DNA of 26,519 bases from an uncultured Bacteroidaceae bacterium (GTDB lineage: Bacteria > Bacteroidota > Bacteroidia > Bacteroidales > Bacteroidaceae). Every line of letters starts with the position of its first letter. The first letter of the stretch is position 1. Under the pieces are notes generated by a model. It saw only the letters and a list, made by a program, of their open reading frames with translations. It had not been told where the DNA came from and did not search any database. Below, piece by piece: positions 16,357 to 22,393 of this stretch. The position numbers were made by a program, and so were the translations under genes. Where the stretch lies: the NCBI GenBank assembly GCA_964596865.1, contig CAZQVW010000002.1, positions 1-26,519 of the forward strand, in the 5' to 3' direction.

Positions 16357-16896
16357 CTATATTATATGGTGAATGGCATTGTAATTCTTGAAATACTGCC
16401 ACATTGCCATTGACGCTGCGCACGATATATTGAATGAATGCTTCGTGCCCACCTGCGGAATTTCCAAACAGTAGTCGCTCAGATCCACTACCTGTTGGCT
16501 TACGCCCTTTACCTCGTTGCCTAAGACCAAGGCCAGCGGACGCGTGTCCTCCCAATCCTGCATACTGACGCTGTCCTCCACCTGTTCCAAACTGATGATG
16601 GGCAACCCCTGCGCCCGAAGTGCCTTAACGCAATCGATGGTGTCCTTATAATATTGCCAGCTCACGGAATCCTCGGCGCCGAGGGCGGTCTTATGAATTT
16701 CGGGGTGAGGTGGGGCGGCTGTGATGCCGCAAAGACAGACCCTCTCCACCCTAAAGCCATCGGCAGTGCGCAATACCGACCCTACATTGTACATACTGCG
16801 CACATTATCCAATACCACTGTGAGCGGCACCTTCTTGGCTTGGCGAAACTGCTCCGGCGTCAGTCGCTGCATCTCTAAAACACTTAGTTTGTGCAT
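16357..16896 (-). CDS. TrmH/SpoU family (SPOUT) RNA methyltransferase
   Basis: VVLDNVRSMYNVGSVLRTAD, LVLGNEVKGVS, EIPQVGTKHSFNISCA: the three SPOUT motifs; 179 aa, catalytic domain only. Confidence 0.92.
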   Translation of the reverse strand: MHKLSVLEMQRLTPEQFRQAKKVPLTVVLDNVRSMYNVGSVLRTADGFRVERVCLCGITAAPPHPEIHKTALGAEDSVSWQYYKDTIDCVKALRAQGLPIISLEQVEDSVSMQDWEDTRPLALVLGNEVKGVSQQVVDLSDYCLEIPQVGTKHSFNISCAASMAMWQYFKNYNAIHHII

Positions 16897-17997: not shown

Positions 17998-18609
17998 CTA
18001 AGGAATTGTCTTAAAGGAATAGCCCTCCTTTATGAGCCATTCGATGCTACGGGGCAGAGCTGTCCATAATTTGTCGGCACTGCGCAGGGAATCGTGAAAA
18101 GTGATGATGCTGCCAGGGCGAGCGAAGCGCTTCACATTCTCGAATACTTGGTTGGCGTTGAGGCGCTTGGAATAATCGCGAGTAACCAAGTCCCACATCA
18201 CCAACTTATAGTGGCGCTTCAGGAAATGATATTGCGCATGGCGAAGCCAACCGTGGGGTGGGCGGAAGAGGTCGGTATGGATATAGGTATTGGCCTTGTG
18301 GATATTGCGCAGATAAGTGCCGGTGGTATGACGCATTCCGCTATAGTGGTTGAATGTGTGATTACCCAGGCGATGGCCGCGCTCTTTCACCATCTGGAAT
18401 ACTTCGGGGTACTTCCTCACATTGTCGCCCACCATAAAAAACGTGGCTTTGATGCCATAGTGGTCAAGAATATCGAGCACACGCGGCGTTACCTCGGGTA
18501 TTGGGCCATCATCAAAGGTAAGATAGATGGCTTTCTCGCCTGTGTTGATGCGCCATATTGCGTTGGGATACAGGATACGGAGCCAAGGGGCGGGCTGCTC
18601 GATAAACAT
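17998..18609 (-). CDS. Polysaccharide deacetylase (CE4/NodB family), no signal peptide
   Basis: YLTFDDGP, ATFF, GNHTFNH (H-x-x-x-H), FRPPHG, WDLVTRDY, IITFHD. Confidence 0.93.
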   Translation of the reverse strand: MFIEQPAPWLRILYPNAIWRINTGEKAIYLTFDDGPIPEVTPRVLDILDHYGIKATFFMVGDNVRKYPEVFQMVKERGHRLGNHTFNHYSGMRHTTGTYLRNIHKANTYIHTDLFRPPHGWLRHAQYHFLKRHYKLVMWDLVTRDYSKRLNANQVFENVKRFARPGSIITFHDSLRSADKLWTALPRSIEWLIKEGYSFKTIP

Positions 18610-18649
18610 AGGTTATAAGTGGTGATAAAAAGGAAAAATGAGTGTATAT

Positions 18650-18710
18650 AAAAGCGAGCTATCCCAAAGTTCGGTTGCCTTTGAGGGCAGGGGGCTTTGG
18701 AATAGCTCGC
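18650..18710 (-). terminator. Long hairpin between the DUF2723 gene and the deacetylase
   Basis: GCGAGCTAT (18654-18662) / ATAGCTCGC (18702-18710), CCAAAG/CTTTGG, inner TGCC/GGCA; followed by TTTTATAT on the minus strand. Confidence 0.65.
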
Positions 18711-18747
18711 TGTGATTGTCAGACACTCATTTCTGAAAACTTTATTG

Positions 18748-21700
18748 TTAGTTTATAGAGGGTTCGATGCCGGCGTTGTTGAGAGCCGTGTAGTAATGAT
18801 TGAATACTTCGGTGTATTTCTTGGCTTGGGCAGCGAAGCCGGCGTCCTCCAGCCCGATAACGGCCTCGTAGAGGGTGCGCATATTCTGATTGATGCTGGC
18901 CTGGCTCATCTGCATGGGCTTGCTTTGCACATTGATATACCAATTCAGATATTGCTGGGCGGTGTGGGCCATGGTGTTGAGCAATTCGCCGGCTTTCTTC
19001 TTGTTGCCCACGGCCACCCACGCGGCAGCCAAATCTGGGGTGCCGCCCAGTTCATCGCTATAGGAGACACTGGTCTCCGGCAACACCTTGTCGGATTTCT
19101 CCAATACCAGTTTGGCGCGCTTGAGGTCGCCCTGTTTCACCAATTGCTGCGCCAAGATAGCGAACATACGGCGCATAGTGAGACACATGTGGGCGGTGGT
19201 CTCGTCCAAATAGACATTGGGGGCGCCCACGTTGCCAAAGCGGAATTTGTTCATCACGTTGTCGTACATCTTATCCACATCCACGCTCATTCCGTTGTAG
19301 AAAGCGGGGAACGGACTGATTCGATAGGCCAATCCCTCCTGGATTAGGTTGGCATCGAGGCCGAGATAGTTGTCGCGACCCACGGTGATGGCGATATACA
19401 TCGGGCGTGTCCAGTTGCAATTCTGCAGCATCTCCAGCATCATCAGCGAGGGCTTGTATAATGCCTGTCTGCCCTTGAGGGAAATCACCATATAATCGGG
19501 GATGCTGTCGTTGGGGCTGGCAATGAGCATACCGGATTTCCTCACAGCCTGTTTGTCTATCTTCATCACGATGGAATCGGTGGGGATGAAGTGGTATTGT
19601 GGATCTGGATTGCGCACCCAGTATTTCAAGATGTTTTTCAGCTCAAACGGATTGTCGCCCCATTGGGCTTTAGCCTCTTCGGGATTGTCGATGTAGGCTT
19701 GTTTGAGTGCGTCCTTCATATCTTGTATGCGCACATACTCGTTTTGGCCGGTTACATACTCAGCTCTTGCCCATTTAATGGGCACGGCGGGCGAAGAGTA
19801 GGCCGGACGCGCCATTTGGTCGATATACCAGTCGGTCTGGAGGTAGGAAAGGTTGCAAACGCGCGCATCTTGGCGCACTCCCTCCGTGTCTTGATTATAC
19901 CACAAGGGGAATGTGTCGTTATCTCCGTTGGTAAAGATGATTGGGTTGCCTTTTTCTTGCAGGCTGTTGAGGTAATTTTGGCCAAAATCGCGGCAGGAAT
20001 AGCGGTTGGAGCGGTCGTGGTCGTCCCAGTTTTGGGAGCCCATCTGAATAGGCACCAATAGGCACAGTAATGTTACCACCACAGCCATGGCGGGCGCCAG
20101 ATTCCATTGCTTTTGGAAGATTTTGGCGCGGCTAATCCAATCTATCAGTGCGGTAACGCCCATACCAATCCAAATGGCGAAGGCGTAGAACGAACCGGCG
20201 TAGGCATAATCCCTTTCGCGAGGCTGCGAGGGCGTCTGATTCAAATAAAGCACGATGGCAATGCCCGTCATAAAGAACAGGAAGAAGACAACCCAGAATT
20301 GTTGCGCACCTTTACGTCCGCGGAACGCCTGCCAGAATAATCCCAGCAAACCCAGCAATAATGGCAGGGCGTAATAAACATTGTGCCCCTTGTTGTTTTT
20401 CAGAACATCGGGCAGTTTGCTCTGGTCGCCCAAGCGCATATTGTCGATAAATGGGATACCGGTGATCCAGTTGCCGTTCTCGGTTTCTCCCACGCCCTGA
20501 ATATCATTTTGGCGACCGGAGAAATTCCACATAAAGTAGCGCCAATACATGAATCCGAGCTGATAGGAGAGGAAGAACTTGATATTATCAATCTGAGATG
20601 GGATTTGCACCGTCTGTATTTGGCCGTTGCCCGGGTCATAATCCACATCATGATAATGAATATCGCCAAGCCACGATTCGTAGACGGAGGCATAATCGCT
20701 GTTCCAGATACGGGGGAACAGCATGTTTTGGGCGTAGATATAGTCGCTCTTGCTGCCCACCTTTTCGTAGCTGTCTTTTTCGCCCGGGGTGGTCTTCTCT
20801 TTTCTTTCGTAGATTGCTTTTCCCTCGCTGCGGGCGGGCACAAGACGGTTTGGGTCTTCGCTGTCGCGCACCCACTTCAGTTGGCTATTGAATGTGGGGC
20901 CATAGAAAAGCGGGGTGGAGCCATATTGGTCGCGGCTGAGGTAATCGCCAAGGGTGAAGATGTCTTCGGGGGAATTTTGGTCCATCGGCGGATTGGCCGA
21001 GGAGCGGATAACGATAATTGAATAGGTGGAATAGCCAATCATCAGCATCAGGAAGCAGAGAAGCGACGTGTTGAGCACGCGCCTAAGGTCTTTGTTCTCC
21101 ACCACCCTTTTTACCTTGAACAGAGCGAACACAATCGCGCCCAAAATCACGATGCCAATCAGAATGCTCTGCCATCCGTTGCCGAAGAATGGGATACCCA
21201 GCAATGCCACCGATGCCACAAACAGCCATTTGGCGCGTGGCAGGCGGTAGTCCTTTTCTTTCAAATTGAAATAGATGGCGGCGATTACCACGGCCACTAA
21301 TATAATTAGGTAGATGATAAGTCCGGTGTTGAAGGGCAGGCCTAAGTCGTTTACAAACAGCAATTCAAACCAGCCGCCCACCTTTACGATGCCCGGCACC
21401 ACGCCATAGAGGATTACTGCCACCAATAAGAAACTTATCAGCAAAGCTATCAACGAGCCCTTCACTTGTGCGTTGGGGTTGTGGCGATAATAGTAAATCA
21501 ATACGATGGCGGGGATACACAAAAGGTTGAGCAAATGGACGCCGATGCTCAATCCCATAAGATAGGCTATCAATACCAGCCAGCGGTCGGCTCCTGGTTT
21601 GGCGGCTTGGTCTTCCCATTTCAATATCAGCCAGAATACCACTGCCGTAAAGAAAGAGGAGAACGCATATACCTCACCTTCCACTGCGCTAAACCAGAAT

Positions 21701-22107
21701 GTGTCGGAAAAGGTGTAGGCCAACGCGCCCACTGCGCCGCCGCCGAGGATGGCGATGGTCTGAAGGGTGGAGGTTACCTGCCCTTTGTCGCAGATGAGGC
21801 GGCGCAGGAGGTGGGTGATGGTCCAAAAGAGGAAGAGGATTACGCCGGCGCTCAACAAGGCCGACATCGTATTCACCATCTTGGCCACATGGGAGGGGTC
21901 GGAGGCGAACTGGCTAAACAAATTGGCCAGCAGCATGAAAAACGGTGCGCCTGGCGGGTGGCCTATCTCCAGCTTGTAGCCGGTAGTGATAAACTCGGGG
22001 CAATCCCAGAAACTGGCGGTGGGCTCAATGGTGGAGCAATAGACGAATGCCGCTATTGCAAACATCACCCACCCGCAAACATTGTTGAGCAGGTTATACT
22101 TCTTCAT
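18748..22107 (-). CDS. DUF2723 family integral membrane glycosyltransferase (GT-C fold, TMEM260-like)
   Basis: 1119 aa; ASFWDCPEFI..GHPPGAPFF, FWFSAVEGEVYA, HLLNLLCIP, ERDYAYAGSFYAF, NGDNDTFPLWY; many TM helices, large periplasmic loops and a helical TPR-like C-terminus. Confidence 0.88.
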   Translation of the reverse strand: MKKYNLLNNVCGWVMFAIAAFVYCSTIEPTASFWDCPEFITTGYKLEIGHPPGAPFFMLLANLFSQFASDPSHVAKMVNTMSALLSAGVILFLFWTITHLLRRLICDKGQVTSTLQTIAILGGGAVGALAYTFSDTFWFSAVEGEVYAFSSFFTAVVFWLILKWEDQAAKPGADRWLVLIAYLMGLSIGVHLLNLLCIPAIVLIYYYRHNPNAQVKGSLIALLISFLLVAVILYGVVPGIVKVGGWFELLFVNDLGLPFNTGLIIYLIILVAVVIAAIYFNLKEKDYRLPRAKWLFVASVALLGIPFFGNGWQSILIGIVILGAIVFALFKVKRVVENKDLRRVLNTSLLCFLMLMIGYSTYSIIVIRSSANPPMDQNSPEDIFTLGDYLSRDQYGSTPLFYGPTFNSQLKWVRDSEDPNRLVPARSEGKAIYERKEKTTPGEKDSYEKVGSKSDYIYAQNMLFPRIWNSDYASVYESWLGDIHYHDVDYDPGNGQIQTVQIPSQIDNIKFFLSYQLGFMYWRYFMWNFSGRQNDIQGVGETENGNWITGIPFIDNMRLGDQSKLPDVLKNNKGHNVYYALPLLLGLLGLFWQAFRGRKGAQQFWVVFFLFFMTGIAIVLYLNQTPSQPRERDYAYAGSFYAFAIWIGMGVTALIDWISRAKIFQKQWNLAPAMAVVVTLLCLLVPIQMGSQNWDDHDRSNRYSCRDFGQNYLNSLQEKGNPIIFTNGDNDTFPLWYNQDTEGVRQDARVCNLSYLQTDWYIDQMARPAYSSPAVPIKWARAEYVTGQNEYVRIQDMKDALKQAYIDNPEEAKAQWGDNPFELKNILKYWVRNPDPQYHFIPTDSIVMKIDKQAVRKSGMLIASPNDSIPDYMVISLKGRQALYKPSLMMLEMLQNCNWTRPMYIAITVGRDNYLGLDANLIQEGLAYRISPFPAFYNGMSVDVDKMYDNVMNKFRFGNVGAPNVYLDETTAHMCLTMRRMFAILAQQLVKQGDLKRAKLVLEKSDKVLPETSVSYSDELGGTPDLAAAWVAVGNKKKAGELLNTMAHTAQQYLNWYINVQSKPMQMSQASINQNMRTLYEAVIGLEDAGFAAQAKKYTEVFNHYYTALNNAGIEPSIN

Positions 22108-22361: not shown

Positions 22362-22393
22362 CAAAGTTACGCCTTTGCCGCCAAAAAGCCAAA
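22362..22393 (-). promoter_or_regulatory. Bacteroidetes sigma-70 promoter for the DUF2723 gene
   Basis: Minus strand TTTG (22393-22390), 20-nt spacer, TAACTTTG (22369-22362); implies a leader of about 250 nt. Confidence 0.75.

Follow-up and report, generated by a model that had tools for sequence, protein, structure and literature searches.

Human TMEM260, a protein O-mannosyltransferase of the endoplasmic reticulum (CAZy family GT117; PDB 9RQL, 9RQM, and 9RQN), binds the mannose of dolichyl phosphate mannose through residues D52 and H67, and uses D441 of a luminal Rossmann-like domain as its catalytic base (10.64898/2026.03.17.711096). The O-glycans of Bacteroidota carry a hexose (mannose) at their reducing end; the transferase that attaches it is undiscovered, and a search for homologs of eukaryotic O-mannosylation has been advised (PMC12871550, 2025). 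A different use of GT-C glycosyltransferases is found in the arnBCADTEF operon, which modifies lipid A with 4-amino-4-deoxy-L-arabinose (L-Ara4N). Here the GT-C enzyme ArnT stands beside ArnD, a NodB-fold enzyme without an export signal, and the lipid-linked sugar is modified before it is flipped. Amino-sugar membrane lipids are made by HexSDF of C. difficile (PMC10128005) and GpgSDF of P. aeruginosa (PMC12713373), each of which unites a synthase and a deacetylase with an MprF/AglD2-type flippase-like protein. We compared with these systems a gene pair in a 26,519-nucleotide stretch of DNA (contig CAZQVW010000002.1, hereafter the window) from the genome of an uncultured Bacteroidales bacterium (NCBI label Bacteroidaceae; 2.2 Mb, 85% complete). 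The pair encodes a GT-C glycosyltransferase of the DUF2723/TMEM260 family and, 138 bp downstream on the same strand, a CE4/NodB-fold deacetylase; each is present as one copy in the 85% complete genome. A literature search of about 8.4 million papers and preprints found no paper on these bacterial GT-C and deacetylase proteins, or on the pair.

An earlier, sequence-only reading of the window had placed both genes, which lie on the minus strand, correctly and proposed that they may form an ArnT/ArnD-like module. Our analysis partly supports that interpretation. The GT-C enzyme belongs to GT117, not to the ArnT enzymes, and the adjacency of the two genes is more than chance. Our overall reading, which we hold with about even confidence, is of a candidate protein O-glycosyltransferase, probably co-transcribed with a deacetylase that would act on a lipid-linked N-acetyl sugar from the cytoplasmic face. 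In this reading, the two genes are an old operon, but probably not a pair in which one prepares the donor of the other.

The GT-C enzyme matches PF11028 (TMEM260-like, formerly DUF2723) at E = 2.6e-77 and 259.1 bits, against a gathering cut-off of 24.2 bits, and this is its sole Pfam match above cut-off. Human TMEM260 (9RQL) was likewise its sole sequence match in the PDB (profile E = 3.3e-28), where no ArnT was matched, and an NCBIfam scan that included the ArnT model returned no match. The GT-C enzyme gave no PMT or PMT_2 match above cut-off in Pfam, neither protein of the pair matched the ArnT or ArnD models, and membership of the pair in the ArnT (GT83) and ArnD families was rejected on these scans. 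The AlphaFold2 (AF2) model of the GT-C enzyme (mean predicted local distance difference test, pLDDT, of 89) has a membrane core with a beta-rich insertion, followed by a Rossmann-like domain and, at the C-terminus, a domain of helical repeats (Table 1). The helical repeats are modeled over residues 969–1111; no TPR family of Pfam is matched in the protein itself, and TPR_19 is matched in one homolog (P0304). When aligned by HMMER, residues 683–768 pair with residues 398–480 of TMEM260, which places D729 opposite the catalytic base, and D35 and H50 fall opposite the two mannose-binding residues. D35, H50, G728, D729, N730, and T732 are invariant in a 32-sequence alignment; in all GT-C enzymes the first periplasmic loop carries an acidic residue, here D35, and the fold is likewise common to them. 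Foldseek ranked the protein-modifying GT-C enzymes Pmt1–Pmt2, PglB, AglB, and STT3 first, all weakly, with ArnT (5f15) appearing as the 15th match (E = 1.2e-2).

The likeness to TMEM260 extends from PF11028 and the donor-binding pair to a catalytic Asp within an extracytoplasmic Rossmann-like domain. The modeled helical repeats may correspond to the C-terminal TPR domain with which TMEM260 binds its acceptor peptide. The bacterial enzyme differs in length, at 1119 residues versus 729 in the solved TMEM260 chain, and in its beta-rich periplasmic insertion, which TMEM260 as described lacks. It also differs in its bacterial carrier lipid, in having no IPT-domain clients, and in the deacetylase gene that lies behind it. 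ArnT, by comparison, has a small periplasmic domain, unlike the large lobe of protein-binding type seen here.

These data suggest that the GT117 enzyme is a candidate initiator of general protein O-glycosylation in Bacteroidota. Judged by its conserved residues, its donor would be polyprenyl phosphate mannose and its acceptor a protein Ser or Thr. Most likely, it would take a polyprenyl-phosphate hexose at the periplasmic face and then move the sugar to the Ser/Thr hydroxyl of an exported, unfolded protein, which may be held by the periplasmic lobe formed from the Rossmann-like and helical-repeat domains. The enzyme for the first sugar of Bacteroidota O-glycosylation is still sought, and a TMEM260-type enzyme that occurs in nearly every genome sampled (see below) is a direct, testable candidate. 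The mechanism expected of a GT-C enzyme using a polyprenyl-monophosphate sugar is that of the Gtr-type three-component systems, which combine a GT2 polyprenyl-phosphate-sugar synthase, a flippase, and a GT-C enzyme. In keeping with such a system, another contig of the source genome encodes an ArnC/GtrB-like GT2 of 318 residues (G000:C26:9550-10506 = L153:1504-2460), located between DUF4199 and DUF6452 genes, which aligns with the ArnC model over its full length at 168 bits, below the cut-off, and could make the polyprenyl-phosphate sugar donor. The genome also contains two flippase-like genes. Unlike in Gtr-type systems, these components are unclustered, and the classical system includes no deacetylase.

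The deacetylase matches PF01522 at E = 1.8e-27 and 96 bits, and the earlier statement that its catalytic motifs are complete is borne out. All five CE4 motifs are intact (TFDDG at 31–35, H84/H88, R116-P-P, D145, and H172), the Asp-His-His metal triad is present, and D33, D34, H84, H88, R116, P117, P118, D145, and H172 do not vary across 46 family members, which were sampled from clusters at 50% identity. The family also agrees with the earlier description of a protein that has neither a signal peptide nor a transmembrane anchor: 0/46 members have a transmembrane-like stretch, as assessed by hydropathy only, with no signal-peptide predictor, and all 46 lack a signal peptide or lipobox. In the window, no other in-frame start lies between the preceding stop and the start codon of the open reading frame, which leaves no room for a concealed upstream leader. 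A basic/aromatic motif near the N-terminus is shared by every member (Table 1). Its residues 8–13 are helical in the AF2 model (pLDDT 97), and we infer a possible membrane-interface helix. The top Foldseek matches were PdaA, Bc1960, PdaC, and SpPgdA. Eight NCBIfam models were matched at E up to 0.01, namely PdaB, PgdA (three models), NodB, PdaA, YlxY, and an XrtA-associated deacetylase; the ArnD model was not among them. Scores against the PgdA equivalog models were about 100 bits, against cut-offs of 400–800, and the NodB model was matched at 96 bits, against a cut-off of 240 bits.

We scanned with the family profile of the deacetylase, taking one genome per species, and recovered 80 loci, of which 79 were assessable. 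These are mostly Bacteroidales and span Bacteroidaceae, Prevotellaceae, Muribaculaceae, Porphyromonadaceae, Tannerella, Dysgonomonas, Odoribacter, Paludibacter, Tangfeifania, and some Flavobacteriales metagenome-assembled genomes. The GT-C gene lies immediately upstream of the deacetylase gene, on the same strand, in 74/79 loci. The distance from the GT-C stop to the deacetylase start has a median of 18.5 bp; in 27 loci it does not exceed 10 bp, and some genes overlap. The flanks are unconserved: no gene at positions −2 to −4 recurs in more than 6 of about 50 loci, and general synteny was therefore rejected as an explanation for the adjacency. When the coordinates of the GT-C and deacetylase searches were cross-read and combined with fetched loci, the two genes were also found adjacent in all 19 deacetylase-holding genomes of a second family, f8 (tentatively Flavobacteriaceae), and in 5/7 sampled genomes from the order of the source genome. 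Conserved adjacency and a deacetylase that is not exported were the two points on which the sequence-only reading had chosen beforehand to be judged, and both hold, the latter as far as hydropathy across the family can tell. Adjacency was found in none of the judgeable genomes of f7, f9, f11, f12, f13, f15, f16, and f17, where a clear ortholog lies elsewhere, and searching out to 7 kb from the deacetylase gene at 20 unlinked loci revealed no GT-C gene. By these counts, the adjacency is confined to two clades of the class. A fusion of the two proteins was also sought and rejected; long deacetylase matches are multi-CE4 repeats without DUF2723, and the longest GT-C relatives have no CE4 part. 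Two loci (L005 in genome G242 and L017 in G258) carry two tandem GT-C paralogs, and in L005 the deacetylase gene follows the second copy.

The GT-C enzyme probably does not depend on the deacetylase. Co-occurrence of the two families across the phylum, which the sequence-only reading had offered as a check on its proposal, proved one-sided. Within an even sample of 300 genomes plus the source genome, the GT-C gene occurs in 300/301, versus 107/301 for the deacetylase ortholog (profile E up to 1e-45). The ortholog is present in 7/7 genomes of the same order, 62/68 of the same class, and 38/225 of other classes, and in 0/112 genomes of families f21 and f28. Two f8 genomes (G290 and G294) cleanly lack the deacetylase gene between the GT-C gene and the next conserved gene, with the GT-C frame intact, and a third f8 genome likewise lacks it. 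Comparison of GT-C sequences from deacetylase-adjacent, unlinked, and deacetylase-less lineages revealed 95 positions conserved throughout, including every charged residue near the catalytic motifs; only 10 positions are fixed in different states, a pattern that tracks the class boundary and phylogeny. Among Bacteroidales loci, 22/64 (L045, L046, L050, L055, L062, L063, and 16 more) have queG, the gene for the tRNA-modifying epoxyqueuosine reductase, after the deacetylase gene and often overlapping it, giving a GT-C–CE4–queG operon. As queG is packed equally tightly behind the deacetylase gene, tight packing here is no proof of a shared pathway.

In other lineages, where it is unlinked, the deacetylase gene is often found among membrane GT2 and flippase-like genes. 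Five loci of other classes contain clusters of the order GT2, flippase-like gene (PF03706/TIGR00374), GT2, CE4, GT2, and in family f15 the deacetylase gene lies between two GT2 genes; in f7 and f12, a TatD gene lies downstream and gltX upstream. The unlinked deacetylase gene has GT2 neighbors of the HpnI/PgaC-like membrane type. The best homolog of this GT2 in one f8 genome is next to a flippase-like gene, at a distance of 180 kb from the pair, and Bacteroidales matches to the GT2 partner reach 22–27% identity only. Such membrane GT2 and flippase-like neighbors would suit an enzyme that deacetylates a lipid-linked sugar from the cytoplasmic side. These clusters of distant relatives resemble HexSDF and GpgSDF; the three-gene adjacency of those systems is absent from the window and partly present in distant relatives (L148–L152, L138/L139). 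The synthases near the deacetylase relatives are GT2 enzymes, whereas GpgS is a GT4 and HexS is MGDG-synthase-like. Moreover, GpgD belongs to COG3233/DUF2334, unlike this deacetylase, which matches DUF2334 at E = 0.004, below the cut-off. The deacetylase also resembles NodB, the rhizobial chito-oligosaccharide deacetylase, as a leaderless single domain of about 200 residues with intact catalytic motifs, and in some lineages its relatives adjoin membrane GT2 enzymes. It differs in scoring below the NodB cut-off and in having no NodA or NodC partner in the window.

Together, these observations suggest that the deacetylase is most likely a leaderless, metal-dependent NodB-type de-N-acetylase located at the cytoplasmic face of the inner membrane, where it would remove the acetyl group from a lipid-linked N-acetylhexosamine (HexNAc) built by membrane GT2 enzymes. 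A flippase-like protein would carry the deacetylated product outward, following the synthase–deacetylase–flippase logic of HexSDF and GpgSDF. A membrane aminoglycolipid is one candidate for this product, and a lipid-linked glycan destined for the envelope is another. The deacetylase would then be an accessory partner of the GT-C enzyme, not the obligatory maker of its donor. That it is such a steady partner suggests that these bacteria contain an amino-sugar lipid or glycan. Several observations weigh against this reading. The GT2 neighbors of the deacetylase cannot be assigned to an acceptor, and by Pfam no GT2 or flippase-like gene adjoins the pair in the window. A GT2 enzyme with a PF03706-type flippase also occurs in archaeal dolichyl-phosphate-sugar routes (AglD), which feed GT-C enzymes. 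Residue Glu28 of the GT-C enzyme, seven residues before the donor-binding D35, is found in all the deacetylase-holding Bacteroidia aligned, and is Ala in most deacetylase-less lineages; this difference follows the class boundary, and is a weak hint toward coupling of the two proteins. Finally, the adjacency extends across two large clades (74/79 loci and 19/19 genomes), with short or overlapping gaps and unconserved flanks, and pairs kept adjacent to this extent usually share a process.

Such a shared process could be an Arn-like coupling, in which a GT2 enzyme would make polyprenyl-phosphate-HexNAc, the CE4 enzyme would deacetylate it on the cytoplasmic side, a flippase would export it, and the GT-C enzyme would attach the free-amine sugar to an acceptor, either a protein or an envelope component. 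The tightly packed order of GT-C then CE4, kept in Bacteroidales and in the second family, is consistent with this scheme, as are the leaderless deacetylase, its association with GT2 and flippase-like genes in other lineages, the below-cut-off ArnC/GtrB-like GT2 (168 bits) and two flippase-like genes of the source genome, and Glu28 near the donor loop in the deacetylase-holding class. Of these, the adjacency, the leaderless deacetylase family, and its GT2 and flippase-like neighbors support the proposed ArnT/ArnD-like module. The identities of its components are not supported: the GT-C enzyme is a TMEM260/GT117 relative that resembles ArnT no further than the common GT-C fold, and the deacetylase has no ArnD match, its nearest relatives being of the PgdA, PdaA, and NodB types. 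The window also contains no ArnA, ArnB, ArnC, ArnE, or ArnF neighbors. The parallel drawn with Francisella NaxD is one of logic only, as NaxD belongs to the YdjC family and not to CE4. Further evidence against coupling comes from the distribution of the two genes, with the GT-C gene widespread without the deacetylase (300/301 versus 107/301, and 0/112 in f21 and f28), the deacetylase cleanly lost while the GT-C gene stays intact, and no GT-C gene within 7 kb in the 20 unlinked loci. The catalytic and donor-binding positions of the GT-C enzyme are identical with or without the deacetylase, and the equivalent positions of TMEM260 bind mannose (10.64898/2026.03.17.711096). Moreover, the sugar known to join Bacteroidota O-glycans to protein is a hexose and not a hexosamine (PMC12871550). 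We therefore consider an ArnT/ArnD-style pathway possible rather than likely, and the coupling as set out here rather unlikely. A related proposal, that Bacteroidia have an undescribed Arn-like route in which a GT2 enzyme loads undecaprenyl phosphate with HexNAc, the leaderless CE4 enzyme deacetylates it at the cytoplasmic face, and the GT117 enzyme puts the free-amine sugar on exported proteins or lipopolysaccharide, also seems unlikely, perhaps slightly more so; if it is true, Bacteroidia of gut and marine habitats would possess a cationic modification of the envelope affecting resistance to host antimicrobial peptides.

The deacetylase might instead have a soluble substrate in the cytoplasm, for example a chito-oligosaccharide (as for NodB), a nucleotide sugar, or a recycling intermediate, and have only a promoter in common with the GT-C gene. 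Its NodB-like size and leaderless build would suit such a role, along with its NodB match (96 bits, below cut-off) and housekeeping neighbors, namely TatD downstream and gltX upstream in other families and queG in Bacteroidales. This proposal is harder to reconcile with the recurrence of GT2 and flippase-like neighbors in several lineages, with a conserved basic/aromatic N-terminal motif that suits a membrane interface, and with an adjacency to a membrane glycosyltransferase that lasts across two large clades; we judge it to be quite improbable. An exported enzyme acting on peptidoglycan, like PgdA and PdaA, would be in line with the nearest sequence and fold matches, which are peptidoglycan N-acetylglucosamine and N-acetylmuramic acid deacetylases. 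This was rejected for want of a leader and is very improbable, as signal peptide, lipobox, and transmembrane segment are absent in 46/46 members, the gene in the window has no in-frame start upstream, and the scores against the PgdA equivalog models fall far below their cut-offs. The reading of a candidate protein O-glycosyltransferase with an accessory, cytoplasmic-face deacetylase of a lipid-linked sugar is thus the one that we retain.

Table 1. Coordinates of the gene pair, its protein features, and neighboring elements in the window
Feature	Position (nt)	Strand	Remarks
GT-C glycosyltransferase, DUF2723/TMEM260 (GT117) family	18748-22107	minus	1119 aa; PF11028
GT-C membrane part, residues 1-700	20008-22107	minus	
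GT-C Glu28	22024-22026	minus	
GT-C D35, first periplasmic loop	22003-22005	minus	opposite TMEM260 D52 (HMMER)
GT-C H50, first periplasmic loop	21958-21960	minus	opposite TMEM260 H67 (HMMER)
GT-C beta-rich periplasmic insertion between membrane helices, residues about 372-504	20596-20994	minus	AF2 secondary structure
GT-C periplasmic Rossmann-like domain, residues about 704-960	19228-19998	minus	contains G728-D729-N730-D731-T732
GT-C D729	19921-19923	minus	opposite TMEM260 catalytic base D441
GT-C C-terminal helical-repeat (TPR-like) domain, residues about 969-1119	18751-19203	minus	seven AF2 helices
Leaderless CE4/NodB-fold deacetylase	17998-18609	minus	203 aa; PF01522
Deacetylase N-terminal basic/aromatic motif, residues 6-20	18550-18594	minus	in all 46 members
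Hairpin with 17-bp stem, then T-rich tract, in the intergenic gap	18653-18711	minus	
Candidate Bacteroidetes-type -7 box TAACTTTG	22362-22369	minus	pattern search; sole one upstream of the pair
SpoU-type RNA methyltransferase	16357-16896	minus	

As the sequence-only reading had noted, the deacetylase gene has no −7 box of its own; the pattern TAnnTTTG is absent from the minus strand of the 138-bp gap between the GT-C and deacetylase genes. The candidate box upstream of the pair lies about 255 nt before the GT-C start (Table 1). Across the whole window, TAnnTTTG occurs 26 times versus 14.2 expected, a count reached by no shuffle, and this excess fits the use of Bacteroidetes −7 boxes across the window. 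The gap itself contains a very stable hairpin, and as a whole folds at −44.6 kcal/mol (z = −8.2). The hairpin is a single copy in the genome and is absent from three genomes of the same genus, which rules out a conserved RNA element or a dispersed repeat. The gaps in these relatives are 6, 22, and 21 bp; their short, hairpin-free state indicates that the ancestral arrangement was a tight operon and that the hairpin is a recent insertion. With its T-rich tract, it may act as a terminator or attenuator of transcription into the deacetylase gene.

Several further observations concern the wider surroundings of the GT-C gene. In other classes, it belongs to a fixed block with a hemW-like radical SAM gene, an LpxA gene, and a ROK kinase gene, in the order hemW-like, GT-C, LpxA, ROK (L026–L029, L034, L037, L038, and L041); the LpxA neighbor could reflect a link to lipid A or plain synteny. 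Within the window, Pfam identifies the neighbors of the pair as DUF4294, a SpoU methylase, a sulfatase, and DUF3857/3858 proteins. The SpoU-type RNA methyltransferase is found no more than a few genes away from the GT-C gene in four unrelated loci, namely in the window and at L019, L024, and L025.

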